This document shows, in pieces, positions 3,893 through 44,559 of a DNA stretch of 64,000 bases (its first letter is position 1; each line of letters begins with the position of its first letter). Below the pieces are notes generated by a model, which made no database searches, was not told the DNA's origin, and was given only the letters and a program-made list of their open reading frames with translations. Position numbers and translations under genes: made by a program. Location of the stretch: the NCBI GenBank assembly GCA_963715865.1, contig OY970280.1, positions 416,001 to 480,000 on the forward strand, written 5' to 3'. The stretch is from Candidatus Bathyarchaeota archaeon (GTDB lineage: Archaea; Thermoproteota; Bathyarchaeia; Bathyarchaeales; Bathycorpusculaceae).

Positions 3893-4216
3893 TTGAAGAA
3901 CAGTTACATCATCATATTAGTTACCAGCAAAGATAAGCAGGAAGCAGAAAAAATAACGCAGTCGCTTTTGAAGGAACATTTGATTGCTTGCGCAAACATC
4001 GTTAATCCAGTCACATCATTTTTTCATTGGTCTGGCAAAATCGACAGGGCTGAGGAATGCTTAATCGTTATGAAATCACGCATGGACCTGTTTACTCAAG
4101 TTGCTGAGCGCGTGAAGGGCTTGCATAGTTATGAGATTCCAGAGATTCTTGCGCTTCCGATTGTTGAGGGCTCGAAGGCTTATTTGGATTGGATGAGTAG
4201 TGTGCTCAAGCCTTAA
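3893..4216 (+). CDS. cutA: Divalent-cation tolerance protein CutA
   Basis: LIACANI, FHWSGKI..AEE and LHSYEIPEI motifs. Confidence 0.93.
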   Translation: MKNSYIIILVTSKDKQEAEKITQSLLKEHLIACANIVNPVTSFFHWSGKIDRAEECLIVMKSRMDLFTQVAERVKGLHSYEIPEILALPIVEGSKAYLDWMSSVLKP

Positions 4217-4253
4217 GTACATTTTTGTACCGATAAGCCTTAAATAGTACATT
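4216..4253 (+). promoter_or_regulatory. trp operon promoter: TATA box TTAAATA (4240-4246) flanked by GTAC boxes
   Basis: AGTACATT at 4216-4223 and 4246-4253, TGTAC at 4226-4230; these resemble TrpY TRP boxes (TGTACA). Confidence 0.55.
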
Positions 4254-4289
4254 GGCGTATGCTTCTGAACCATACGGAGAATAAACAAA

Positions 4290-4340
4290 ATGGGGAATCG
4301 CCTTTGGTTCACAAGCATTAACCGAAACCAAACCAGCTAA
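4290..4340 (+). other. 16-aa Trp-containing leader [19 protein letters not shown] overlapping the start of the trpE frame
   Basis: SD-like GGAGA at 4276-4280, ATG at 4290, CTT-TGG at 4302-4307, TAA at 4338-4340. Confidence 0.6.
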
Positions 4341-5706
4341 CCCCCTAAAAATCAAAAAAATCACAATCACACAACAACCCCTCGAAATATTCTCAAAACT
4401 CCAAAAACAATACCAAACAACCTACCTTTTAGAATCCATCGAAGGACCAAAAAAACTCGCACAATACTCATTCATCGGATTCGACCCAAAAATAACCATC
4501 CAAGCTAAAAACAAAAAAGCCCAAATCAAAAACGAGAGAAACGGGGAAATAATTAAAGAGGTAACAAGCGACCCACTGCAACTTATAGAAGAACTGCTTA
4601 AAGGCGACTCTGTTCCCACTCGTAAGTTTCGATTCGTCGGCGGAGCTGTTGGCTATATTTCTTACGATGCCGTTCGTTACTGGGAGAAACTGCCCCTGAA
4701 GTGTCAAGCTGACCTTGACTTCCCTGACTTGGAGATGGGCATATTTGACGACGGCTTAATTTTCAACCACATAAAAAAACAAGCCTTCTACTACTACCGC
4801 AACGAGAACCGCTTGGCTGAAGTTGAAAACCTGCTCAGGCAACCTGTTGATTTTGACGAATTATCTTTCACTCAACCAAAAGTTAACACTAAAAAAGAAC
4901 ACTATGAACAGGCGGTAGAGAAAGCAAAAGAGTACATAACCGCAGGCGACATTTTCCAAGTTGTTCTCTCCAAACGCTACCAGTTCCAAATAAAAGGCAA
5001 CCTAATCCCATTCTACCAGTCGCTGAGAAGCATCAACCCTTCACCCTACATGTACTTCTACAAGTCAGGCGAGCGGCAAATCGTTGGCTCTAGCCCAGAA
5101 ATGCTCGTCCGAGTTGAAAACAGAAAGGTAGAAACCTTCCCAATTGCAGGCACCAAGCCAATTGCTGACAAACCAGGCGAAAACAAAAAGATAGCTAGAG
5201 AATTGCTTGATGACCCTAAAGAGCGGGCTGAACACGTTATGCTCGTTGACTTAGCACGCAACGATATCGGAAGAATTTCTAAGTTTGGAAGCGTTCACGT
5301 GCCCGAATTCATGAAGGTTCACCAGTACAGCCACGTACAACACATCGTCTCACAAGTTGTTGGCGAACTTAAAGAAAACCTTCAAAGCTACGATGCGCTA
5401 AGGGCTGTTTTTCCTGCTGGCACGGTTTCTGGAGCACCAAAAGTACGCGCCATGGAAATCATTGACGAACTGGAACCTGCAAGGCGTGGACCATATGCGG
5501 GTGCTGTAGGCTACTTCTCATACAATGGCAATGCAGACTTTGCCATAACCATCCGCACACTCTTCGCCGATAAGAACCAAGCTTACATCCAAGCTGGCGC
5601 AGGAATCGTGGCTGATTCCGTGCCTGAGCGAGAGTGGTTCGAAACTGACCATAAGGCAAAAGCTCTGATGCAGGCGCTTGAGCAGGCTGGAGGTGCAAAA
5701 CCATGA
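4290..5706 (+). CDS. trpE: Anthranilate synthase component I; needs a +1 shift near codons 2-6 (about 471 aa)
   Basis: The TrpE frame is open from 4285 (after TAA 4282) and contains [22 protein letters not shown] and [16 protein letters not shown]. It has no ATG/GTG/TTG before 4729. The C-terminal part has [22 protein letters not shown] and [10 protein letters not shown]. Confidence 0.9.
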
Positions 5707-6293
5707 AGGTAGTGGTAATTGATAATTATGATTCGTTCGTTTACAACCTTGTCCAGTACATAGGTGAACTTGGCGCAGAAACCATAGTTTACAGAAACAA
5801 CCAAGTTAACCTAAAACAGTTAACCCAGCTTAAACCCGACAGAATCGTGATATCGCCAGGACCAGGCACACCTGAAGATGTCAAGTATTTTGGCGTTTGC
5901 ACATCAATTCTGCAGACTATGAGCCGAACAACGCCAACTTTAGGCGTTTGCCTAGGTCATCAAGGAATAATCAACGCGTTCGGCGGAAAAATCATCCATG
6001 CAAAAAGGCTCATGCATGGAAAGACTTGCACCATAAAACATGACCAAAAAGGCATTTTCACAGGTGTCCGTAATCCTTTCACTGCGACAAGGTATCATTC
6101 GCTTGCTGGAGAACGGTGCTCCATTCCTTCGTGCTTAGAAATTACTGCAGAATGCGTTGATGACGGAGAAATCATGGGCGTTCGCCATGTTGAGTACCCG
6201 ATTGATGGCGTACAATTTCATCCTGAATCAATTCTCTGCGAGGACGGGAAAGTTATAATTAAAAACTTCTTGGATGGCAGACGACGGCAATGA
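5703..6293 (+). CDS. trpG: Anthranilate synthase component II (glutamine amidotransferase)
   Basis: IDNYDSFVYNL, SPGPG, LGVCLGHQ and GVQFHPES motifs. Confidence 0.95.
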   Translation: MKVVVIDNYDSFVYNLVQYIGELGAETIVYRNNQVNLKQLTQLKPDRIVISPGPGTPEDVKYFGVCTSILQTMSRTTPTLGVCLGHQGIINAFGGKIIHAKRLMHGKTCTIKHDQKGIFTGVRNPFTATRYHSLAGERCSIPSCLEITAECVDDGEIMGVRHVEYPIDGVQFHPESILCEDGKVIIKNFLDGRRRQ

Positions 6294-7348
6294 TTAGGGA
6301 AGGCATCCAGAAACTCATCGAAGGCTACAGCCTAACAAGCGATGAATCAGGAGAAATAATGAGGGAAGTTATGTCGGGAAAAGCAACAAACTCGCAAACT
6401 GCCGCTTTTCTAACAGCCTTACGAATGAAGGGTGAAGCGGTTGAGGAACTCATCGCCTTTGCATCCGTTATGAGAGAGCATAGCAGCCAAATACATCCCC
6501 ACGTACATAGCCGCCTAGTCGATACTTGCGGGACAGGCGGAGACAAAATAAAAACCTTCAACGTAAGCACAGCAGCAGCCTTCGTCATTGCCGGAGCCGG
6601 CGTCGCAGTTGCTAAACATGGAAACAGGGCTGTAACCAGCAAAAGTGGAAGCGCCGACGTATTAGAAGAGCTCGGTCTTAACCTACATTTGGAACCTGAA
6701 GCAGTTGAAGGCATCATAGAAAAAGTCGGCATAGGCTTCATGTTTGCCCCAGCTTTTCACCCTGCTATGAAATTTGCCGCTGAGCCAAGACGCGAGATAG
6801 GCATTCGCACAGTATTCAACGTTCTTGGACCATTAACGAATCCAGCATGCGCTAATGCTCAACTGCTCGGCGTTTACGACCCAAAACTGATCAGCCCATT
6901 GGCTTATGCTCTAAAGCGGCTTGGATGCGAAGAAGCAATGGTTGTTCATGGATTAGACGGGCTAGACGAGATATCAACTGTAGGAAAAACAGTAATTGCG
7001 CACCTAAAGAAAGGCGAAGTAACAAAGTTAGAAACTATTCCAAGCGATTTCGGCGTAAAAAAAGCAAGAATAACTGACTTACAAATGTCAACGCCTGAGG
7101 AAAGCGCAGAAATCCTCTTTAAAATTCTAAATGGCAACGTTGCTGATGACCCGAAAGCTGAGCTTGTGCTCGTCAATAGCGCTGCAGGAATCATTGTGGG
7201 TGGGAAAGCAGAAGATTTCAAAGGCGGCATGGAAATAGCAAGAGAATCAATCGAAAGCGGAGCTGCCTACGCTAAGCTTAAGATGTTGGTTAAGGCTTCA
7301 GGCGGAAGCCTCTCAAAACTAGAGGAGTTCGAAGCGCAATATGAGTGA
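6290..7348 (+). CDS. trpD: Anthranilate phosphoribosyltransferase
   Basis: DTCGTGGD, FNVST, KHGNRAVTSKSGSAD and RTVFNVLGPLTNP motifs. Confidence 0.95.
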   Translation: MIREGIQKLIEGYSLTSDESGEIMREVMSGKATNSQTAAFLTALRMKGEAVEELIAFASVMREHSSQIHPHVHSRLVDTCGTGGDKIKTFNVSTAAAFVIAGAGVAVAKHGNRAVTSKSGSADVLEELGLNLHLEPEAVEGIIEKVGIGFMFAPAFHPAMKFAAEPRREIGIRTVFNVLGPLTNPACANAQLLGVYDPKLISPLAYALKRLGCEEAMVVHGLDGLDEISTVGKTVIAHLKKGEVTKLETIPSDFGVKKARITDLQMSTPEESAEILFKILNGNVADDPKAELVLVNSAAGIIVGGKAEDFKGGMEIARESIESGAAYAKLKMLVKASGGSLSKLEEFEAQYE

Positions 7349-8120
7349 CTTTCTGGATATGCTGGCGCATGATGCCAAAGAAACCATTAATAGCGGATAC
7401 TATGAAACGTTAAAAGCTACAGGAAGCATGCGCGTTAGTTTGAGGAAGGCAATTTTAGATAGCCAAGTTAATCCGGTCATAACTGAAATTAAAGCTGCTT
7501 CACCCTCAGCCGGTATAATCAGAAGAAACGTTAAACCAAGCATGATTGCGAAAGCCATGGAAAAAGGCGGAGCAGTTGGCATTTCAGTTCTAACTGAGCC
7601 AAAACACTTCAACGGCTCTCTAGAAGCGTTGGCTCAGGCACGAGAGGCTGTGAAACTTCCCATACTCATGAAAGACATAATCATTATTCCCGAGCAAATA
7701 GAAACTGCCTCACAATTAGGCGCCAATGCAGTCTTGCTAATTGAAGCTCTTTTTGAAAGAGGCTATTGCGAAACCAGCGTCGATAAAATGATAGCTTTTG
7801 CTCACGCAAGGGGCCTTGAGGTTTTGCTGGAAACACACACAGAAGAAGAATTCCAATCGGCTATTGAAACCAACGCTGACCTTGTTGGAATTAACAACCG
7901 AAACATCGCAACCCTAAAAATCGACTTAAGTACAACAAAGCGCATCCTTGAAAAACATAAGAATAATGGCAAAATGGTCATAAGTGAAAGCGGAATAAAC
8001 ACGCCAGCAGACATACGTTTTCTTCGTGAAAGTGGTGCATGCGCTTTCCTTGTCGGATCAGCCATCATGTTAACCGATAACATTGAAGAGAAAGTTAGGG
8101 AGTTTGTGAATGCAAAATGA
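7341..8120 (+). CDS. trpC: Indole-3-glycerol phosphate synthase (monofunctional)
   Basis: [30 protein letters not shown] and SESGI motifs; 259 aa with no TrpF domain. Confidence 0.93.
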
Positions 8121-9313
8121 AACTAAGCAATTACCCGATTGATGGAAAATACGGGAAATATGGCGGCCGTTTTGTTCCAGAAGTTCTGATGGCGGCGATT
8201 AAGGAGTTGGAAGAAGCCTACGAGCAAGCTCGAAAAGACCCGAATTTCCAGAAAGAGCTTGATTATTACCTTTCAGAGTTTGTGGGAAGACCAACACCGC
8301 TTTATTACGCTGAGAACTTAACGCAGAAACTAGGCGGCGCCAAAATTTACTTGAAGCGTGAAGACTTGACCCATGGAGGAGCACACAAAATAAACAACAC
8401 AATGGGGCAGGCGTTGTTGGCGAAGCGAATGGGCAAGAAACGTGTAATCGCCGAGACAGGAGCAGGCCAACACGGCGTAGCAACAGCAATAGCATGCGCT
8501 GCCTTAGGCTTGAAAGCTGAGGTTTACATGGGTACAGAAGACTGCGAACGGCAACGGCTTAACGTTTTTAGAATGAAGCTTCTAAACGCACAAGTGCATC
8601 CCGTAGAAACTGGCTCAAAAACCTTGAAGGATTCTATTAACGAAGCGTTTAGGGATTGGGTTACAAACCTTGAGAACACATACTACTTAATCGGCTCAGT
8701 AGTGGGCCCTCACTCCTATCCCATGATTGTTAGGGACTTCCAAAGCGTAATCGGCAAAGAACTCAAAGAACAATTCCAGAAAAAAGAAGGCCGACCGCCA
8801 GATGCACTTGTTGCTTGCGTAGGCGGCGGAAGCAACGCCATGGGCACCTTCTACCCATTCGAAGATGATTATGAAGTGAAGCTTTATGGTGTTGAAGCTG
8901 CAGGTCAAGGCTTAGAAACAGGCAAACACGCAGCCTCACTTGGCGCAGGAGCAGAAGGAGTCTTTCACGGCATGCTAACGTACGTTCTCCAAGACAGTAA
9001 CGGGCAAATACAGAACACAAGCAGCGTTTCAGCAGGCTTAGATTATCCTGGTGTTGGACCAGAACATTCCTTCTTAAAAACGTTCAAGAGAGCACAATAC
9101 ACTTCAGCCACAGATAAGGAAGCGGTGGAGGCTTTTCTCACCTTGTCCAGAGAGGAGGGCATTCTTCCTGCATTGGAATCCTCGCATGCAGTAGCTTACG
9201 CAATGAAGTTAGCCAAGCAGATGAAGAAGACGCAGTCAATCGTTGTCACATTGTCCGGACGAGGAGACAAAGACGTGGAAACCGTAGCAGACTACATAGG
9301 GGCAAAAATATGA
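8117..9313 (+). CDS. trpB: Tryptophan synthase beta chain
   Basis: [33 protein letters not shown] and [13 protein letters not shown] motifs. Confidence 0.97.
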
Positions 9314-10125
9314 ACGCTATAAACGAAGCATTCCAAAAAGCAAAGGCGCAGGGAAACGGCGCGCTCGTCGGCTACATTATGGCTGGAGACCCAAAGCCAG
9401 AACTGACACCGAAAATTGCTGATGCCCTAATCAAGGGCGGCGTAGACATTTTGGAGCTTGGGCTTCCCTTCTCTGACCCAATTGCTGATGGACCAACAAT
9501 TCAGGCTGCAAGCGTACGCGCGCTGGCTGCTGGAACAACGCCTGTTAAGGTGCTAGAAATTGCTAAGGAAATACGACAAAGCCATGATGTGCCAGTTGTA
9601 ATAATGACCTACTATAATCCTGTTTTCAGGATGGGGCTCGAGAGGTTTTTCGGTTTAGCTGAGAAATGCATGGTTGACGGAGTTATAGTTCCTGATTTAC
9701 CAGTTGAGGAAGCAGGTGACTACAAGAAAGCCGCAAGCAAATTTGGTGTAGACACAATTTTCCTAGCAGCACCTTCCACTTCCAATGAGCGGCTTGCAAG
9801 GATAGTTTGGTGCTCTTCAGGCTTTCTGTATCTTGTTTCGCATTTCGGGGTGACAGGAGCAAAAGCAACGATAGAAGATTCAACCATTCACTTAGTCAAG
9901 CGTGTTTTACCCTTCACATCCGGAAGAATTCCATTGGCGGTTGGGTTTGGCGTTTCGAAGCCTGAGCATGTTCAGCGCATTGTTGGGGCAGGAGCTGACG
10001 GCGTCATAGTTGGAAGCGCCTTCGTCAATCTAATTCAAAAGCATCGGGAAAAGATTGATGTTCTGCTAAATGAACTGCAAGCGACCGCTTGTAAATTAAA
10101 AGCGGCAACAAAAATCATCCAATAA
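9310..10125 (+). CDS. trpA: Tryptophan synthase alpha chain
   Basis: [28 protein letters not shown] and ADGVIVGSA motifs. Confidence 0.96.
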
Positions 10126-13910: not shown

Positions 13911-14138
13911 TCGTGCGTCGACTACATAAAAACTAACCCGCAACTGCACATGGATTTTAAACGGATAATTGCCGAAGGCAACCTTGTAGCAGTCCACAGC
14001 CACCTAAAACCCAACCCTCAAGACAGTGGAGCAGCAGTTGTCGATATTTTCCGAGTAGAAGATGGCAAGCTGGCGGAGCACTGGGACGTAATCCAGCCCG
14101 TTCCAACACAAGCCGCAAACAAAAATGGCATGTTCTAA
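13911..14138 (+). pseudogene. SnoaL-like (NTF2-fold) protein, C-terminal half only
   Basis: KRIIAEGNLVAVH...VDIFRVEDGKLAEHWDVIQ; the frame opens immediately after the upstream stop and the N-terminal half is absent. Confidence 0.7.
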
Positions 14139-14659
14139 ACGTGACTTTCCACGCGGACGATTGGTTTACCCATAATGTCTCGGATTGTATCCGCCACTTT
14201 GAATGGCGAGCGGACAAGCAGAAGTTTGGTTTCTCGTTCACCCTGAGAGTTAACCGTTAAATCCCCATAACCAAAAATCCTGCCGCCAATGGACTGGTAA
14301 ACCATTAAATCCCCAAAACCCGAAGGGGTAACAACAAACGAATGCAACCTAATAATGCCATGGCGAATTTCTAAGCCATCCTGCCGTAGCACGTAAGTGT
14401 TGGATGCCCGAAAAACCAGCAGCTCCAACATGCTAAGCAACCATATCACGCCAAAAGCCAGAAGAGTCCAAGTGGCAACTGCTAAACCAGCCATATATGA
14501 AAAGGCAACACCGAAGTATATTTCAAGCCAGAGAAAGAGAACTGAAACAACAAAAACAGTGACCGTTCGAACGATAGCTGCTGGGGTAACCCAAGGCTTT
14601 CCCGACCAAACCACAGCGCCATGCTGAACATGCTTATCAGAAGACAAACTAAAACACAA
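14135..14659 (-). CDS. Membrane protein with a bacterial PH (bPH_2/YdbS-like) domain
   Basis: Two TM helices followed by YVLRQDGLEIRHGII...QSIGGRIFGYGDL. Confidence 0.7.
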   Translation of the reverse strand: MCFSLSSDKHVQHGAVVWSGKPWVTPAAIVRTVTVFVVSVLFLWLEIYFGVAFSYMAGLAVATWTLLAFGVIWLLSMLELLVFRASNTYVLRQDGLEIRHGIIRLHSFVVTPSGFGDLMVYQSIGGRIFGYGDLTVNSQGERETKLLLVRSPFKVADTIRDIMGKPIVRVESHV

Positions 14660-14708
14660 CCACTAGGCAATAAGCAAAGAGCGTATTTAAGCATTAAAGT
14701 CAAATGAA

Positions 14709-15254
14709 CTATGCAATTAACGCTTCAAATATTTCAAGTGTTTCGTCTTTCTGCGCCTGTTTTTTGATCGCATTGATATTCAATTTGGTGAAAGCTAAAA
14801 TTGCCTTAACATCTTCCTTATCTTTAATTGCGCGTTCAGGCGGCAGGGTTACCTTAATCATCCTGAGTTTCGCTACAATCAAGCCTTCAGGTGATTGAAA
14901 AAAGGTTTTTAGGCTATCGATTTTTCCTGATTTTTTATCCAGTTTGCCATCTGAAAGTATGATGTCAACAGTGTATGGTGTAGTTTTGTCTTTGAATGTC
15001 GCTATTTTATAACCTGATGTTAATGCAGTCTCAATTTTTCGTTCATCAACTTCTAAATCTGCCTGTCTTAATGAAGACGCAATTTTTCTTTTCAAGTCAG
15101 TTTGGTTAGTGACTGCAATTATCATGTCTACATCAGTGGTGGTTCGGGGAACGCCGTAAAAACTCGCTGCCAACGCACCAGTGAAGGCATAATCTAAGCC
15201 TACTTTGTCAAAGGCATCAGCAAGCTTCTTAACAAAATTGTAAAATGCTTCCAA
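14709..15254 (-). CDS. Nucleotidyltransferase toxin, MenT1/Rv0078A (AbiEii-like) type
   Basis: YAFTGALAASFYGVPRTTTDVD, PEGLIVAKL and KDKED motifs. Confidence 0.7.
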   Translation of the reverse strand: MEAFYNFVKKLADAFDKVGLDYAFTGALAASFYGVPRTTTDVDMIIAVTNQTDLKRKIASSLRQADLEVDERKIETALTSGYKIATFKDKTTPYTVDIILSDGKLDKKSGKIDSLKTFFQSPEGLIVAKLRMIKVTLPPERAIKDKEDVKAILAFTKLNINAIKKQAQKDETLEIFEALIA

Positions 15255-15598: not shown

Positions 15599-16279
15599 CT
15601 ACTTTTTCTCCCCGTTCCTCTGAGGCCTATGAGCAGGCCAACACTTCTGGCAGTACACGGGTCGATCTGCACGAGGTTGAAATGGCACTTTGCATTCGCA
15701 GCCGCAGTCGCTGCAAACAGCGGTGTAAACTGGTTCCTGGTGAAATTGCTTAAACAAATGGTAATTCTTGAGGCGTGGCCACCCAGTCTTGGCGTAGCGT
15801 AGCATTTCAGGGTTGTCTTTTAGCCAGCGCATCATGTGGAAGAAGCTTTTGCCTCTTTTTTCTTCACGTTCAGCTAATGGTTCATAGCCTAAGTTGCGGA
15901 TTTCATCTAGATACGCGATTTCTGTAAGCTTCTGCGCTTCGCCGACGACTCTTATGCGTTTAACGCGGTCTTCACCGTAAACTTTGCGGAGTTCCTCAGC
16001 GGCAACATCAAAGATGCAGCCTTGGCAAATGTGGATTGCCTCGTCTGGCTTAAGGTTAAACCATGCGACAAGTTTAGATACGATGCGTGAGGATTCTTGC
16101 AGGTACTCTTTTTCGCGGAAGATTTCTTGGTAGAACCTTACGTCGATGAGGTCGTATTTGAATTCGCCTGTTTCTTCTCGGTAGGCACCGACTACAACGC
16201 CGTAAAGCAAGTCGCCGCTGCCTGCGTCATCAACAATAACTGTCAAGTAATGATGTTCCCTCTCTTTCTTCTTATGCAA
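15599..16279 (-). CDS. RNase HII-like domain fused to a C-terminal CxxC-x17-CxxC zinc ribbon
   Basis: IVDDAGSGDLLYGVVVG resembles RNase HII DEAGRG; C-terminus YTAVCSDCGCECKVPFQPRADRPVYCQKCW. Confidence 0.6.
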   Translation of the reverse strand: MHKKKEREHHYLTVIVDDAGSGDLLYGVVVGAYREETGEFKYDLIDVRFYQEIFREKEYLQESSRIVSKLVAWFNLKPDEAIHICQGCIFDVAAEELRKVYGEDRVKRIRVVGEAQKLTEIAYLDEIRNLGYEPLAEREEKRGKSFFHMMRWLKDNPEMLRYAKTGWPRLKNYHLFKQFHQEPVYTAVCSDCGCECKVPFQPRADRPVYCQKCWPAHRPQRNGEKK

Positions 16280-16347
16280 TGTTTAATTCGTGTATAAAAA
16301 TAGTCCTCCCAAAAAGAAAGAGAACTAAAGGGGCAGTGCCTTAAAGT

Positions 16348-16998
16348 TTATGATGCTGTTGCTAACTGTTGCTTAATACCTTCCGCAGGGCTTTGTAATA
16401 TGCTGAGAACTCCTTTTTTTCCAAGGCGCAGTTGTCTCTCGCCTCTAAAAATGCATACGTGGGCATTCTTTATTTCAATGTTTTTTCCAACAGCGATGGA
16501 GTTTATTTGTCCTTCCCATAGGCAGAGTTTGATTTTTCCAGTTTCGTCTCCAACCAAAGCGTTAACTACCGTGACAGTGTTGCCAAACTGCGTGTGAACC
16601 TGCGCCGGTTTAGGAATCTCCAGAACTTCAGCCTTCACATTAATCCGTTTCATACCAGCCCTCAAATCATGAACAACAATGTAAATTGATTCTGTATTTT
16701 GTTTAGCGATTTTTTTGCATATTTTATCAGTGCTCATCCAGCTTTCAAAAGGATTATCCTTTCTCAACAGAAATTGTTCATCAACTCTGAACTGAGCCAC
16801 AGCATTGTTGTCTTTTTTTATTAGAAAAATTATTTCATCTTTCACTTTGCCACGGTATTCAACTGTAAGGTTGCCGCAGACGGCTTTTTCGTTGTTTCTT
16901 GCTTTAATTAGTGCTTGGAAAACTTCAGAGGGGTAAATGTTGTGTTTTACTGAAAGAAGAGCAATGTGCTCCCCTAAAGTTGATTTTTTCTGTCTCAA
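16348..16998 (-). CDS. OB-fold single-stranded nucleic-acid-binding protein with an N-terminal extension
   Basis: DLRAGMKRINVKAEVLE...NALVGDETGKIKLCLW...IEIKNAHV..FRGERQL. Confidence 0.8.
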   Translation of the reverse strand: MRQKKSTLGEHIALLSVKHNIYPSEVFQALIKARNNEKAVCGNLTVEYRGKVKDEIIFLIKKDNNAVAQFRVDEQFLLRKDNPFESWMSTDKICKKIAKQNTESIYIVVHDLRAGMKRINVKAEVLEIPKPAQVHTQFGNTVTVVNALVGDETGKIKLCLWEGQINSIAVGKNIEIKNAHVCIFRGERQLRLGKKGVLSILQSPAEGIKQQLATAS

Positions 16999-22113: not shown

Positions 22114-23103
22114 ATGAACAACAAATATGTCATTTATATTGCCACCATTATAACCATCGCCTCAATTGCTTCTGCCGCTTTCATGTACGTTAATTATTCA
22201 GCACAGACTGCTAACCTGAAATCTCAGAATTCCAATCTGACGTTTGTAGATGATGAAGGTTACGTAACCAATTTAACCTCTGTTCCTCAGAGAATTATCT
22301 CGCTTGCGCCGAGTTGTACGCAAATCTTGTTCGCTATAGGCGTGGGCGACAAAGTTGTGGGTGTGACAACCTATGACGATTACCCGTACAATTTCTCAGC
22401 TTGGATCGCAGCTGGCAACATGACGAGCATAGGAGGCTATTCAACTCCAAACATGGAAGCCATTGCTTCGCTTCATCCCGATCTAATAGTCTCCGACAAC
22501 ATAAACGATGCTAGCCTCCCAAACATGAGAAGCTTAGGCTACAAAGTACTCGTGCTTAATCCAAACAGCATCAACGGCATTTACCAAGATATATCGCTCC
22601 TAGGCAGGGCAACAGGCGCCACACCTCAGGCAACCGCGCTGATTAATAACATAACCAGCAGCATCAACGCGATAACCGCGAAAATCGCAGCCACAAACAT
22701 CACAGCTCCTCTGAAAGTCTACTATGAGATTTGGTCCAATCCGCTCATGAGTGCGGGCTCAACATCTTGGGTAAGCGATGTTATAGCCAAAGCTGGAGGC
22801 GTCAACATCTTCGCTGACGTGGCCCAAGGATATCCAACTGTTAGCTCTGAAACCGTAGTACAACTTAATCCAGACGTAATACTCTTGCCCACAAGTCCAG
22901 GAGGCTCAGGAGGAATGGCGTTCTACGGAAGCATTGCCCAAGTCGAAGCAAGACCAGGATGGAACTCGATAAGTGCGGTGCAAAACAACAGAGTCGACGC
23001 CATCGACGAAGAACTCTTCGCTCAACCAGGACCGAGAGTCGCTGACCAAGTGCTGGCTGTCGCTACTTGCTTGTACCCGCAACTCTTTAACTCAACCTCC
23101 TAA
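22114..23103 (+). CDS. btuF: Cobalamin/Fe-chelate ABC substrate-binding protein (BtuF-like)
   Basis: PQRIISLAPSCTQILFAIG, PNMEAIASLHPDL and QPGPRV motifs; N-terminal membrane anchor. Confidence 0.8.
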   Translation: MNNKYVIYIATIITIASIASAAFMYVNYSAQTANLKSQNSNLTFVDDEGYVTNLTSVPQRIISLAPSCTQILFAIGVGDKVVGVTTYDDYPYNFSAWIAAGNMTSIGGYSTPNMEAIASLHPDLIVSDNINDASLPNMRSLGYKVLVLNPNSINGIYQDISLLGRATGATPQATALINNITSSINAITAKIAATNITAPLKVYYEIWSNPLMSAGSTSWVSDVIAKAGGVNIFADVAQGYPTVSSETVVQLNPDVILLPTSPGGSGGMAFYGSIAQVEARPGWNSISAVQNNRVDAIDEELFAQPGPRVADQVLAVATCLYPQLFNSTS

Positions 23104-23122
23104 TTTTTTTTGTAGTGAAAAC

Positions 23123-24202
23123 ATGAGTGCGGACAAAGTTGAAGGCACATACTTTAAGCGCTCTTCGCAATGGAAACTAATTATAATCACGCTAATAGTA
23201 GCTTTAGTTGCAGTCGTCATTGTTTCTCTTAACGTGGGTTATGCTCCGATTTCATTCTCCGAAATCCTCTCAATAATAGGTAAACAAATTCCATTCTTGA
23301 ACGGCTCAATCAATCCGTCATCCATATCCGCAGTGGATGAAGCAATAATTCTTCAAATTCGCCTTCCCCGCATTTTAGCAGGTGCTCTGGTTGGCGCCGC
23401 GTTGGCTGCAGCAGGAGTATTGTACCAAGGCGTCTTCAAAAATCCGATGGCTGACTCCTATCTGCTCGGTGCCTCAGCAGGAGCGTCGGTAGGATTTACC
23501 GTTGCCGTCCTGTACGTCACTTCAGCCTTAACGTTCATAGGCTTTGGAACAGCGCAAATCTTCGCTTTCATATTTGCTTTATTAACTACGTTTTTGGTGT
23601 ATTTCATTTCAAGAGTTGGAAACAAAGTCCCGATAACCACGTTGCTGCTTTCCGGCATAATTGTAAACATCTTCCTGCTAGCGATAGAAACAGTTATGGA
23701 ACTCCGCTCCAATCAAGCTCTCATGGGTATAGTAGCGTGGCTTGCAGGCGGATTCTCCGACATCGTGTGGGCGGACGTCTGGGGAATACTGCCCTTCGTT
23801 CTGATAGGAACGGCAATAGCGTACTTTTTTGTCCGCGACCTCAACGTGCTTTCCCTAGGGGACGACACAGCACAGCATTTAGGCGTGAACACGGAAAGAG
23901 TGCGACAAATACTTTTAATTTTAGGTTCTCTAATGACGGCGGCAGCGGTCTGCATAAGCGGAATTATAGGCTTCGTGGGCCTAATAGTTCCTCACATGAC
24001 AAGGCTCATAATCGGACCTGACCACAGAATTCTCTTGCCTGCCTCAACAATCGTTGGCGCAATCTTCTTAGTGGTTTGTGATGCCATAGCGCGCGTAGCA
24101 ACGGGGGCTTCCGAACTGCCTGTTGGTGTCATAACTGCGCTTGTAGGAACGCCTTTCTTCATCTACCTTCTTAGGAGGAAAAAGACAACTTATTCACTTT
24201 GA
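23123..24202 (+). CDS. btuC: FecCD/BtuC-family ABC permease
   Basis: RLPRIL, FKNPMAD..LLG.SAGA, GIIGFVGLIVPH and ELPVG motifs. Confidence 0.88.
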   Translation: MSADKVEGTYFKRSSQWKLIIITLIVALVAVVIVSLNVGYAPISFSEILSIIGKQIPFLNGSINPSSISAVDEAIILQIRLPRILAGALVGAALAAAGVLYQGVFKNPMADSYLLGASAGASVGFTVAVLYVTSALTFIGFGTAQIFAFIFALLTTFLVYFISRVGNKVPITTLLLSGIIVNIFLLAIETVMELRSNQALMGIVAWLAGGFSDIVWADVWGILPFVLIGTAIAYFFVRDLNVLSLGDDTAQHLGVNTERVRQILLILGSLMTAAAVCISGIIGFVGLIVPHMTRLIIGPDHRILLPASTIVGAIFLVVCDAIARVATGASELPVGVITALVGTPFFIYLLRRKKTTYSL

Positions 24203-40250: not shown

Positions 40251-41896
40251 TTAAGCCTCCTTCCCATTTTTGAAACATTTACCTGCCTTGCATTTTTTCT
40301 CAACAATATGCTCAAGGTACTCATCTTTGAAGTATCGCAAAGTTGTCAAGACAGGGTTCGGTGCTGTTTGCCCCAGACCGCAAAGGCTTGCGTCTCTTAT
40401 GAAAACGCCAGATTTTTCTAAGGTTGCAATATCATCCATTTTGCCAGTGCCTTGCGTGATTCCATCGAATATTTCTTTTATTCGTGCAAGCCCTGCTCTG
40501 CAAGGAGTGCATTTTCCGCAGGATTCATCAACGCAGAATTCTGTGAAGAACTTTGCTGTATCCACCATGCAGGATTGGTCATCAAGGACAACGATGCCTC
40601 CTGAACCCATGATTGCGCCGACTTTTGTTAATGAGTCATAGTCTATTGGAAGTTCAAGTAAAGTGTCTGGTAGACAACCGCCTGAAGGACCACCAACCAA
40701 GACTGCCTTGAATTTTCTTCCATCAGGGACTCCTCCGCCAATATCAAAAACAACCTCTCTTAGAGAGATTCCCATAGGTACTTCAATGAGTCCTGGATTG
40801 TTGATTTGACCAGTTAAAGAGAAGCACTTTGTTCCAGTGCATTTAGGCGTTCCAATCTTTGTGAACCATAAGCCACCGTTCTGCACGATAAGCGGGACGT
40901 TGGCTAGGGTTTCAACGTTCTGGATAAGTGTGGGTTTCTTCCATAAACCAGAATTCGATGGATATGGTGGGCGTGGACGAGGCATTGCTCTCTGACCTTC
41001 AACCGAGGCAAGTATGGCTGTTTCTTCTCCAGCTACGAATGCGCCCGCACCGAAGCGTAGTTCAAGGTCAAACTTGAAGGACCCCATTTCAAGAATGTTA
41101 TCGCCAAGTAGGGACATTGCTTTTGCTTGAGCGATGGCTTTCTGCAAAGTTTGAATAGCCAGTGGGTACTCGGACCTAATGTAAATGTAACCTTTTTGTG
41201 CTCCCACGGCGTAAGCAGCTATTAGCATGCCCTCAATTATAGCGTGCGGGTCAGCTTCTGCTAAAGTTCGGTTAGCAAAGACTCCCGGGTCTCCTTCATC
41301 CAAGTTGGCGACTATGTACTTGGGAAAGTTTTGTGCTCTTGCTACGAGGCTCCATTTTTGCCCAGTTAAAAAGCCTGCGCCACCTCGACCTCTAAGACCA
41401 CTGGTTTTAACTTCGTAAATTACGCCTTGGGAGTCATGGTTGCAAGGCATTTAGCTAGGGCAGAGTAGCCACCTGCGGAAATGTAATCTTGAATTCTTGA
41501 AGGATCAATTTTGCCAGCATTTCTCAAAACAAGCCTATGCTGCTTCTGGAAGTATGCTTGGTTCTTGTAGAGCATTTCTTTGACTGGTAACCCTAAAACA
41601 ATGTGGTCACGCACTATTTCTCGAACTTTTTCAGGAGTAACACTCTGATAGAGATAATCTCCTGGTTCAATCAGCACTGCTGGACCAACTGAGCATGTGC
41701 CTATGCAGCCTGTACGTGCAACTTTGCATTCCTTATCAACGCCGAATTCTTTAACCGCATCTTCGAATGCTTTTAGCACTTTTAAAGCGCCGAAAGGAAC
41801 ACATCCGCTTGAGCAGCACACATTAATGCGGTATTTGTAGGCTCGTTCAAAATCTACTTCATGCTCAGCTACTTTTTGAAGATCATCAAGTTTCAG
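40251..41896 (-). CDS. hoxF: Hox diaphorase FMN/NAD subunit (NuoF-like), split by a 1-nt frameshift
   Basis: The 5' part has a thioredoxin-like 2Fe-2S domain. The 3' part has SGLRGRGGAGF, DEGDPG, GEETA and SCGKCTPCR. One base is missing at 41429-41431. Probable CTG start at 41896 after GGAGGGG. Confidence 0.85.
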
Positions 41897-42374
41897 TTTT
41901 AACCCCTCCAAGTGCACTTTTAATTTTTGCTATCACTACCTCTTTTGTGGCTTTACCGATCACTTCGTCGTCCACAACAATGTTTGGCGCCATTGCACAC
42001 GCACCAATACAGCGAGTTACAAGCAGTGAAAGCTTTCCGTCTGGTGTGGACCCGCCGCGTTTAAGACTGAATTCTTCTTCGATCGCCTGCATGATTTGTT
42101 CAACACCTTTCACATAGCAGGCGGTGCCTAAGCATCCGGTTACGACGTGTTCACCTGGTTTTTTAAGTTTAAAGTAACTATAGAAAGTCGCTACCCCGTA
42201 GACATGGCTGGGAGGAATGTTTAGTGAACCAGAAATATCCATAAGCAAATCTTTATCTAGGTACCCGTAAATTTCTTGGGCACGATGCAGTATTTCTAAA
42301 AGAGCGCTTTCTTGAAAATTATGTTCTTTCAGAACTTTTTCCAGCAATAAACGTCTATTATCTATCTCAGGCAA
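41886..42374 (-). CDS. hoxE: Hox 2Fe-2S subunit (NuoE-like)
   Basis: YGVATFY, CLGTACYVKG and RCIGAC motifs. Confidence 0.88.
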   Translation of the reverse strand: MPEIDNRRLLLEKVLKEHNFQESALLEILHRAQEIYGYLDKDLLMDISGSLNIPPSHVYGVATFYSYFKLKKPGEHVVTGCLGTACYVKGVEQIMQAIEEEFSLKRGGSTPDGKLSLLVTRCIGACAMAPNIVVDDEVIGKATKEVVIAKIKSALGGVKTET

Positions 42375-42608
42375 GCATTTGATCCTCCATTGAGTTTATG
42401 GGAATCATGTTCATCGCAGGCACTACTTGAAGTCCTAGTATAAAAGGTTAGAGGAGCAACTAAATGGAATTTTATAGAAAATTTTCATAAAATATAACGT
42501 AACTATCAAGGAATTTAGTTGTAAAGGATCAAGAAAATAGGCTTTCCCCATTCTTTTCCTTCTTTTAGAAAACAATAAATTGCTCAACTCATCAATATTA
42601 GCAAAAAA

Positions 42609-42627
42609 ATTGCTTACATTAAGCAAT
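42609..42627. promoter_or_regulatory. Perfect inverted repeat ATTGCTTA-cat-TAAGCAAT, candidate operator
   Basis: Lies in the divergent hox/hyd intergenic region, just upstream of the SD of the sulfhydrogenase operon. Confidence 0.45.
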
Positions 42628-42642
42628 CGGAGAAGAGTTAAA

Positions 42643-44559
42643 ATGCGTATAATATCAAAAGAAAACTTTACCGAGTTTGTCAACGCTCTGATAAAAGATA
42701 GTTCTTTGAACGTTATAGGCGTCAAAGCCAAAGGTGATAAATTCGCTTTTGGACCCTTAGAATCTGCCAATGAACTGCGATTGGATTACGATGTTACCCT
42801 TCTTCCGCCTAAGAAGTATTTTTTTCCACAAAGAGAAACCTTAGTAACTTATAATGTTGGAAAGGGATTTTCCGCCAAAAATCCATCTGAAATCAAGCCC
42901 ACGGTAATAATCGGGGTTCATCCATATGACATGATAGCTCTTCTCCACATGGATGAAATCTTTAGCGAAACAAAATCAGACCCTTACTATTTTGAAAAAC
43001 GAAAATCGTCGATAATTATCGGCGTAAACATTCAAAAAATGTCAAAGTGGTGTTTTGCATCTTACATGGGCTCTGTCACAGTAGAATATGGCTATGATCT
43101 TATGCTTACTGATCTTGGAAACAGGTACGCCATCAATATTGGCTCGCCAAAAGGTGAAGAGCTTTTAGATAAATATGCCAAAAACGTGGATAATGCGCTT
43201 GCAAGAGACAGCCAGCTGGTCGGTCAGAAAAAACGGGAAATAATGGCGATGACTCAGCAAAAGCTAGATTTTCCACCAGAATTAATTCCTGAAATGCTAA
43301 GCAAAAGTTATGAAGACAGCATGTTTTGGGAGAAACATTCAGAGAAATGTTTAGCATGCGGTTCCTGCGTCCTTGTTTGTCCCACGTGCTACTGCTTTGA
43401 CGTTAAAGATAATCCTGATTTGTCGCTTGAACATGGCGAACGAGTAAGAACATGGGACGGATGCTTGCTGGAAGATTTTGCGAAAATCTCTTCGGGAGAA
43501 AACTTTCGCCCAACAAGACCGACCAGATATAGGCACAGATACTTCAAAAAAGGCAAGTACTTGTTTGACCGATTCGGATTTATTTCATGTGTTGGTTGCG
43601 GCAGATGCTCCTCAAACTGCCTTCCCAACATTGCCAATCCAGTCAACCTATTCAACGATATGTACCATGAAAGCCAAAACAGCGGAGTGCAAGTAACAGT
43701 TGCATCAACACCAGAAATTAAGATTCAAACTGAAGGCAACATAGACTACGTTCCCAGACTGGCAACAATAATAAAGAAACAACCCATGACTGCTAATGAA
43801 ACGTTATTTGAAATCAAGTTAGACGACGGCTCAGTACTAGGTCACAAACCAGGCCAATTCGTTGAAGTTTCAGTTTTTGGAATAGGCGAAGCACCAATTT
43901 CTATATCGTCGCCGCCGACAAAGAAAAACACGTTTGAACTATGCGTCCGCAAACTGGGCAACGTAACAACCAAGATGCATACGCTTAATGTGGGCGATAA
44001 AGTGGGAATAAGAGGACCATTCGGAAATGGCTTTGACGCAGAATCCCTGAAAAACAAGGACTTGCTTTTTGTAGCAGGCGGTCTTGGGCTGGCGCCATTG
44101 CGGTCATTGTTCAATTATGTTCTTGATAACCGAAAAGACTACGGCCAAGTCACGTTGCTTTATGGTTGTAAAGAACCAAGAGAACTACTTTTCGCTGATG
44201 AACTCCTTGCGCTCGCTAAGAGAGACGATGTAGAATTCAAGCCTACAGTTAACTGGTGCCCTGAAAACGAAGCTTGGACAGGCAACATAGGCGTAATCAC
44301 AACTCTGATTCCTGAAGTCAACTTTGATCCAGAAAAAACTTACGCTGTAGTTTGTGGTCCACCAATCATGTACAAGTTCGTTATCGCCGACCTAAAAAGC
44401 AAAAACGTTCCAGACGACCACATAATCATCTCTTTAGAGCGAAGAATGAAATGTGGAGTTGGAAAATGCGGCCACTGCCAAATTAACCAAGTCTATGTAT
44501 GCAAAGATGGCCCAGTGTTTAATTATTCAAAAATTAAAGGAATCCCGGAGGCGCTTTAA
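42643..44559 (+). CDS. Fused sulfhydrogenase beta (AsrA-like Fe-S) and gamma (FAD/NAD(P), AsrB-like) subunits
   Basis: N-half has CLACGSCVLVCPTCYC and CVGCGRC..NC. C-half has KPGQF, PISISS, RGPFGNGF, AGGLGLAP and CGVGKCGHC. One continuous ORF. Confidence 0.85.
   Translation: MRIISKENFTEFVNALIKDSSLNVIGVKAKGDKFAFGPLESANELRLDYDVTLLPPKKYFFPQRETLVTYNVGKGFSAKNPSEIKPTVIIGVHPYDMIALLHMDEIFSETKSDPYYFEKRKSSIIIGVNIQKMSKWCFASYMGSVTVEYGYDLMLTDLGNRYAINIGSPKGEELLDKYAKNVDNALARDSQLVGQKKREIMAMTQQKLDFPPELIPEMLSKSYEDSMFWEKHSEKCLACGSCVLVCPTCYCFDVKDNPDLSLEHGERVRTWDGCLLEDFAKISSGENFRPTRPTRYRHRYFKKGKYLFDRFGFISCVGCGRCSSNCLPNIANPVNLFNDMYHESQNSGVQVTVASTPEIKIQTEGNIDYVPRLATIIKKQPMTANETLFEIKLDDGSVLGHKPGQFVEVSVFGIGEAPISISSPPTKKNTFELCVRKLGNVTTKMHTLNVGDKVGIRGPFGNGFDAESLKNKDLLFVAGGLGLAPLRSLFNYVLDNRKDYGQVTLLYGCKEPRELLFADELLALAKRDDVEFKPTVNWCPENEAWTGNIGVITTLIPEVNFDPEKTYAVVCGPPIMYKFVIADLKSKNVPDDHIIISLERRMKCGVGKCGHCQINQVYVCKDGPVFNYSKIKGIPEAL

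Follow-up and report, generated by a model that had tools for sequence, protein, structure and literature searches.

A candidate tryptophan-sensing +1 ribosomal frameshift site at the head of trpE in Bathyarchaeia and other Thermoproteota

Introduction

Bacterial release factor 2 (RF2) is expressed by an autoregulatory +1 frameshift in its gene, prfB, which occurs at the sequence CUU_UGA_C with a Shine-Dalgarno (SD)-like element upstream. Archaea, to our knowledge, lack RF2. At the Ty1 and ABP140 sites, the sequence CUU_AGG_C alone directs approximately 40% +1 frameshifting, because AGG is decoded slowly, the Leu-tRNA moves its pairing forward by one base and translation then resumes at GGC (PMC5009743). 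Antizyme expression likewise uses a +1 shift, which both senses a metabolite and is the effector of a feedback loop, although that shift takes place at a stop codon, with a pseudoknot and upstream elements, and is stimulated by the metabolite. In bacterial trp attenuation, the trp operon is headed by trpL, a short leader ORF with one or more Trp codons, through which ribosome pausing reads the charge of tRNA-Trp; terminator and antiterminator hairpins convert the pause into transcription read-through.

We know of no translational amino-acid sensor in archaea. The known archaeal trp regulators are two transcription factors, TrpY in Methanothermobacter and TK0271 in Thermococcus (PMC6737238). 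With respect to recoding, a 2021 review (PMC8211752) reports no +1 case in an archaeal cellular gene and a single programmed frameshift of any kind in such genes, the -1 shift in fucA1 of Saccharolobus solfataricus, which uses A-AAA-AAT and a stem-loop and is described in one species (PMC1616953, PMC8211752). Term searches of that review and of a review on frameshifting (PMC5009743) gave no mention of trpE or anthranilate synthase, and we found no description of a trpE frameshift in the literature searched.

Here, we examine a locus in a 64,000-nt stretch of a Candidatus Bathyarchaeota genome (the window), for which a sequence-only reading had proposed a prfB-like, tryptophan-sensing +1 frameshift at CUU-UGG that gates trpE. 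We compared the 5' regions of trpE across the Thermoproteota, delimited the presumed site of the shift and weighed other explanations of its layout.

Results

The window carries trpEGDCBA (Table 1). The product of the first gene is identified as TrpE both by its place at the head of the trp operon and by two Pfam domains, Anth_synt_I_N (E = 1.7e-34), which begins at residue 24 of the +1 part starting at 4306, and then Chorismate_bind (E = 5.4e-99); proteins 97-98% identical to it are present in public data. The frame that encodes these domains is closed by a TAA at 4282-4284, open from 4285 and terminated at 5704-5706. As had been claimed, this frame has no ATG, GTG or TTG until the TTG at 4729, which follows 148 start-less codons, the maximum among all ORFs of at least 250 codons in the 2.35-Mb genome. 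Since Anth_synt_I_N begins at residue 24 of the +1 part, TrpE cannot start at 4729; thus, the domain position requires that it begin near 4290-4330.

The sole start codon in this region is the ATG at 4290-4292, located 10 nt 3' of a GGAG and one base out of the TrpE frame. The sequence from 4270 to 4310 is CCATACGGAGAATAAACAAA ATG GGG AAT CGC CTT TGG TTC, which is read from this ATG as MGNRLW. A +1 slip from CTT (4302-4304) to TTT would lead directly into the TrpE frame (GGT TCA CAA) and yield a protein of 5 + 466 = 471 aa. The locus thus consists of two overlapping frames, of which the second lies in +1 and has no start of its own, an arrangement that characterizes programmed +1 frameshifting. 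Upon re-reading the sequence, we found the remaining elements to be as the sequence-only reading had described them: the out-of-frame ATG behind an SD sequence, opening a 16-codon leader with a single Trp codon and a stop; the GGGGA at 4292-4296, 5 nt before CTT; and the entry into the TrpE frame by a +1 slip, for a product of about 471 aa. On these grounds and on the conservation described below, trpE expression very probably needs a +1 frameshift.

Table 1. Features at the trp operon of the window (positions are those of the window).
Feature	Position	Strand	Basis
TATA-like promoter box TTAAATAG	4240..4247	+	Read from sequence; A/T box conserved at this distance in aligned Bathyarchaeia loci
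Shine-Dalgarno GGAG, 10 nt before ATG	4276..4279	+	Complementary to 16S 3' tail ..GGAUCACCUCCU
Leader ORF, 0 frame, 16 codons, one Trp, stop TAA 4338-4340	4290..4340	+	Translation
Purine-rich SD-like element GGGGAATC, candidate stimulator	4292..4299	+	-10 to -3 from the P-site codon
Putative shift heptamer CTT TGG T; CUU in P site, UGG (4305-4307) in A site	4302..4308	+	Conservation
trpE coding sequence, +1 frame, 466 codons + stop; predicted product MGNRL + ..., 471 aa	4306..5706	+	Pfam
trpG, trpD, trpC, trpB, trpA	5703..10125	+	Pfam; starts overlap previous stops

The transcript is predicted to start near 4270, based on the TATA-like box. At each of the trpG-trpA junctions the start overlaps the preceding stop, as ATGA or with an 8-nt overlap, which suggests translational coupling along trpEGDCBA. 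The six operon proteins together contain only 4 Trp in 1942 residues. RNA data from five runs matched small shares of the window; run X16 covered only 4819-5088, at depth 2 and with 14 differences, and the leader lies outside that interval.

We also noted several features of the surrounding sequence. Between the TATA box and the SD sequence, the block GTATGCTTCTGAAC (4255-4275) is well conserved in Bathyarchaeia trpE promoters (L002-L081) and could be either an operator for a trp regulator or part of the 5' UTR; GTATG...CATAC in the same region could form a 5-bp stem. On the 3' side of the shift site, 90 nt (4309-4400) are A/C-rich and nearly devoid of G and T on the coding strand, and encode a variable linker rich in Thr, Gln, Lys and Pro; nearly all Bathyarchaeia loci keep the composition of this tract and not its sequence. 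Elsewhere in the window, pairs of neighboring or overlapping same-strand ORFs at 22114-24202, 14135-15254, 15599-16998 and 41420-42770 may reflect single-base indels.

Conservation of the layout was assessed first in the class Bathyarchaeia, in which a scan of species-representative genomes yielded 80 trpE loci encoding proteins of 65-96% identity, from Illumina MAGs (Stordalen, SPRUCE, co-assemblies and termite gut), Nanopore MAGs and closed genomes. We found the pattern ATG RGG NAT NNN NTT TGG at the 5' end of the TrpE frame in 78 of 81 loci, the window included. Within these 78 sites, the ATG, the GG and TTTGG are invariant, as is the T of AT, while its A is present in 77, and the base after TTTGG is C in 72. 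Columns -14 to -11 are rich in G and A (G at -13 in 69/78). Only the 5' part of the leader is conserved, since leaders are 7-24 codons long and stop at varying places; the TrpE frame downstream is open in every locus. Moreover, 21 of the 78 sites begin with ATGAGG, which puts a TGA in the TrpE frame, and therefore the TrpE frame cannot be entered from upstream in these 21 loci.

The three exceptions are L072, in which a contig end cuts the locus, and L009 and L049, which are in-frame versions with one base missing exactly at the junction of CTT and TGG, such that the ATG is an ordinary TrpE start. In L009 (1501-1560) one G of TTTGG is lost, in a Nanopore MAG, and this may be an error; L049 (1501-1560), from a termite-gut Bathycorpusculum, has CTT GAC and no Trp codon. 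In the public protein P0004, the leader frame continues beyond the Trp codon for 9 codons before it joins TrpE. L009, L049 and P0004 may be constitutive trpE variants.

The variable columns between ATG and NTT in Bathyarchaeia coincide with third positions of the TrpE frame (GGN ATH). This pattern could arise if the shift occurred earlier, or from protein-level selection on G-I-x-F-G. However, TGA and TAG codons in the TrpE frame, as well as different residues in ammonia oxidizers, argue against an earlier shift and against selection for Gly-Ile, and the SD-like element offers an alternative explanation for these columns.

To extend the comparison, we searched 300 genomes of the phylum and read 80 further trpE 5' regions, so that the phenomenon was tested within the Thermoproteota. 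The layout was present in seven families of the class and, elsewhere in the phylum, in families f12, f18, f19, f20, f24, f25, f30 and f35, of which f12 corresponds to the ammonia oxidizers Nitrosopumilaceae/Nitrosotalea, judging by its protein names. The motif is absent from family f16, in which TrpE has an ordinary in-frame start, [M/V]ATR; it was also not found in the 5' fragments fetched for f21, f27, f29, f36 and f44. The number of leader codons varies, as in ATG TGC CTT TGG, ATG AAC GGT GGC TGT CTT TGG and TTG AGT AGA GGG GGT TTA GTT TGG.

The ammonia oxidizers carry ATG GGT GRN NNN NTT TGG in all 22 loci. In 19 of these, a TATA box ends 22 nt before the ATG, a spacing typical of leaderless archaeal mRNAs, which prevail in Thaumarchaeota (PMC6028130); thus, a 5'-terminal ATG is the expected start. 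All loci also have a GTG 4 nt after this ATG, from which trpE is annotated (451 aa). The ammonia oxidizers and a few other lineages, including a small GIMFG clade, have a GTG or ATG in frame 1-3 codons away from the site, and the shift is therefore not obligatory in these lineages; routes by in-frame start and by shift may coexist in the ammonia oxidizers and the GIMFG clade.

Public trpE starts are inconsistent, being placed at an upstream TTG or GTG inside the promoter or at an internal Ile codon called as Met (439 aa) (P0002, P0003, P0005-P0010), or, in the ammonia oxidizer proteins P0122-P0241, at the GTG after the ATG (451 aa). These inconsistencies show that gene callers cannot handle the trpE locus.

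Pooling Bathyarchaeia, Nitrosopumilaceae and other Thermoproteota families, we found a start codon, a few codons and N-TTT-GG in 110 of 117 distinct trpE loci, a result that answers in the affirmative the proposed check of whether the out-of-frame ATG, slippery codon and TGG are conserved in relatives. N-TTT-GG has a dual reading: the start frame sees NUU UGG, and the TrpE frame sees UUU GGN. None of the 110 sites departs from it, with TTC never found in place of TTT and no variation in UGG. The leader begins with ATG in 108 sites and TTG in 2; the P-site codon is CTT in 72, ATT in 23, GTT in 12 and TTT in 3; and the base after UGG is C in 83. There is no in-frame ATG, GTG or TTG in 58 of the 110.

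We also determined the frame of the nearest upstream ATG at sites defined solely by N-TTT-GG at the head of the TrpE frame, with no start presupposed. Of the sites having such an ATG, 112 of 120 had it in the TGG frame, compared to the third expected by chance. ATG-to-TGG distances were 9, 15, 18 or 21 nt, always whole codons, and length changes in whole codons are the prediction of a translated leader frame. The site is retained down to approximately 50% protein identity and across classes, a conservation beyond what coding in either frame explains. Since TTT and UGG are fixed ahead of an otherwise variable linker, the constraint appears to act on the RNA, rather than on Phe-Gly.

The position of the shift is bounded on both sides. 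A TrpE-frame TAG abuts TTT in family f35 and in genome G017, and in L133 and L134 the leader reads MGGHLW and then immediately TAA (in other loci a stop comes one codon later). Thus, assuming that homologous sites work alike, the shift window is confined to the step at which NUU occupies the P site and UGG the A site. The P-site sequence N-TTT, CUU-U in the window (4302-4305), permits the tRNA to re-pair in the +1 frame. The tRNAs for AUU and GUU re-pair on UUU less well than that for CUU, which speaks against the shift reading. The genome encodes tRNA-Leu with anticodons GAG and UAG and tRNA-Gly GCC; ARAGORN detected no tRNA-Trp gene, probably owing to an intron in it. In a scan of the genome for a start followed by NTT-TGG and a long +1 ORF, trpE was the only convincing case, and we attribute the matches at 1258542, 1070227 and 640726 to chance.

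We considered whether elements beyond the heptamer contribute. The 16S rRNA ends at its 3' end with ..GGAUCACCUCCU, and the SD-like RNA element GGGGAAUC lies at -10 to -3. A perfect complement, GGUGAU(C), is found in G045 and G017, and GGUG in all ammonia oxidizer loci; the Bathyarchaeia GG-N-AU(C) would pair with the 16S tail imperfectly and need a small internal loop. Stimulation of the shift by this purine-rich element, 3-10 nt before the slippery codon, is possible. On the 3' side, our analysis agrees with the earlier suggestion that the downstream mRNA is A/C-rich and probably unstructured. The predicted fold of 4268-4400 is indistinguishable from shuffled sequences (z = -1.68), the tract has no T run, and no terminator or antiterminator structure was seen in it. 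In most relatives, a predicted UUUGGUU-AACCAAA pairing comprises only 5 bp. The fold statistics, together with the lack of any Rfam match at E <= 1, led us to reject a known RNA element or attenuator.

We propose the following working for the site. Ribosomes would start at ATG 4290 behind GGAG and read Met-Gly-Asn-Arg-Leu; the P site would then hold the Leu-tRNA paired to CUU, with the leader's sole Trp codon, UGG, in the A site. When Trp-tRNA is plentiful, UGG would be read and translation would end at the stop 11 codons later, so that a peptide of 16 residues, and no TrpE, is made. Under scarcity of Trp-tRNA, the ribosome would pause, allowing the P-site tRNA to re-pair one base forward, from CUU to UUU; Gly-tRNA would then read GGU, and the 471-aa anthranilate synthase component I would be made. 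Given the stop-to-start overlaps of the five genes downstream, gating would probably extend to all of trpEGDCBA. We infer that the shift responds to Trp because UGG is invariant in the A site, the gene heads the trp operon and the operon enzymes are poor in Trp. Taken together, a programmed, Trp-sensing +1 frameshift at CUU-UGG that gates trpEGDCBA is the reading that we consider likely from these comparisons.

If the shift is needed but constitutive, with UGG merely a slow codon that sets a fixed low output of TrpE, then all of the structural evidence for the shift applies equally, and there is precedent in Ty1, which shifts at a rare codon without regulation (PMC5009743). In this case any slow U-initial codon would serve in the A site, but UGG occupies it in 110 of 110 sites, and does so in the leader of a trp operon. 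Moreover, the lineages that lost the site gained ordinary starts, and a weak start codon would be a cheaper route to a fixed low output. Thus, a constitutive shift is unlikely.

A second possibility is that no frameshift occurs: TrpE would start at a non-canonical or nearby in-frame codon (ATC, ATA or ATT in Bathyarchaeia, GTG in the ammonia oxidizers), and the ATG leader would be a regulatory minigene that competes with or occludes this start. The lineage does use non-AUG starts, as judged from hflX, where ACG or ATT follows GGAGG in 12 of 12 relatives; an in-frame ATH is conserved in the Bathyarchaeia trpE loci, with variation like that of third-codon positions; and every ammonia oxidizer locus has the annotated GTG. 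However, no near-cognate in-frame codon is common to the lineages, which have GTT, GAC, AAC or GCC there, and 58 loci have no canonical in-frame start. In the window, ATC 4297 lies 17 nt from the SD sequence, compared to 10 nt for the ATG, and in f35 and G017 the TAG abutting TTT means that what remains, TTT GGC, offers no plausible start. Stalling at UGG would also place the ribosome over such a start, so that starvation would lower TrpE, an effect of the wrong sign, and the invariance of TTT and GG would be left unexplained. We consider TrpE synthesis without a shift to be quite improbable.

The case of hflX was noted outside the window (G000:C1:1898967-1900334), where the frame has no ATG, GTG or TTG for 142 codons. 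In the 12 relatives (among L163, L166-L177), a conserved GGAGG is followed after 7-9 nt by ACG AAA GCC ATC ATA; this codon is ATT in one relative, a TAA directly precedes ACG in another, and an upstream ORF overlaps hflX in a different frame. The ACG is probably a non-canonical start. Two further ORFs outside the window, at G000:C1:705776-706963 and 1872158-1873021 (L164, L165), have 115 start-less 5' codons and encode one Toprim-domain protein and one protein with a DHODB Fe-S binding domain; both are candidates for non-canonical starts or indels.

Finally, an assembly or sequencing error, namely the extra G in GGGG (4292-4295) that the sequence-only reading had itself raised, or a decaying pseudogene can be set aside as having a negligible chance: although the single 2.35-Mb contig that makes up the genome was probably assembled from long reads, and one G fewer would put MGIAFGSQ in frame, three independent peat metagenome runs of different studies yield contigs that cross 4142-4493 at depth 30-187 with 11-12 substitutions and no gap, the out-of-frame layout is found in 110 of 117 loci, including Illumina MAGs, Nanopore MAGs and complete genomes, many relatives have AGG in place of GGG and hence no G run, and the downstream frame is intact in every locus. 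The two observations named beforehand as fatal to the proposal, an indel in reads and in-frame starts in homologues, were thus not made, in that independent contigs carry no indel and most homologues have no in-frame start. Transcriptional slippage was also rejected, as the longest run at the site is only GGGG and 21 of 78 relatives have AGG.

Discussion

Among described systems, the trpE site most resembles that of Ty1. The two share six of seven bases (CUU-UGG-C in most relatives, CUU-UGG-U in the window) and the absence of a large downstream RNA structure; at trpE, as at Ty1, a P-site Leu-tRNA would re-pair forward, a sense codon in the A site would be slow, and a Gly codon (GGC or GGU) would be read next. 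They differ in that the presumed slow codon at trpE is the Trp codon UGG, in place of the rare AGG, in that the trpE site lies in an archaeon, in a cellular biosynthetic operon and 4 codons past its start, and in presumed purpose, which is amino-acid sensing here and the Gag:Pol ratio in Ty1.

The parallel with prfB drawn by the sequence-only reading holds in part. In both, a U comes after CUU, the factor that decodes the A-site codon is itself what is sensed (at trpE, presumably), a purine-rich SD-like element precedes the slippery codon, at approximately -9 to -4, and the short 0-frame product is a dead end; thus the slippery CUU-U and the position of the SD-like element stand. In contrast, the presumed slow codon at trpE is a sense codon read by Trp-tRNA, and not a stop read by RF2, in which respect Ty1 (CUU-AGG-C) is closer. 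Furthermore, the product here serves to make the compound that would be sensed, whereas that of prfB is the sensed factor itself, and in Bathyarchaeia the SD-like match is imperfect. With no UGA stop in its A site, the trpE site would be prfB-like in its working, and is not a member of the prfB family.

Other systems share the proposed logic more than the sequence. Antizyme also couples a +1 shift to metabolite sensing and feedback, but there the metabolite stimulates the shift, whereas lack of the metabolite would do so at trpE. As in trpL attenuation, a short leader ORF with a Trp codon heads the trp operon, and the charge of tRNA-Trp would be read by ribosome pausing. Unlike trpL, the trpE leader has no terminator or antiterminator hairpins, contains just one Trp codon and overlaps trpE out of frame, and its output would be a change of frame instead of transcription read-through. 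Like trpE, fucA1 is an archaeal cellular gene made from two overlapping frames, but its shift is -1 and has no known regulatory logic, while the trpE site is +1 and conserved over several classes.

The distribution of the site, from peat Bathyarchaeia to cultured Nitrosopumilaceae, raises a broader idea, toward which we lean by a little: that a hungry-codon +1 frameshift at NUU-UGG is an ancient Trp sensor across archaeal classes, which gates the trp operon by translational coupling and would be the counterpart of bacterial trp attenuation. Because cultured ammonia oxidizers carry the site, the idea is directly testable. If it is true, the GTG starts annotated for trpE of ammonia oxidizers are wrong, and the real N-terminus would be the trans-frame Met-Gly-Gly-His-Leu/Gly. 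More generally, trpE would be mis-started or truncated by gene callers in hundreds of genomes, with starts called upstream (TTG or GTG), within the gene or, in the ammonia oxidizers, at the GTG.

If borne out, the trpE site would rank as the first +1 frameshift to be conserved in cellular genes of archaea, and as the first frameshift sensor for an amino acid that governs that amino acid's own pathway. It would mean that archaea solved the problem of attenuation by the ribosome alone, without an RNA switch.
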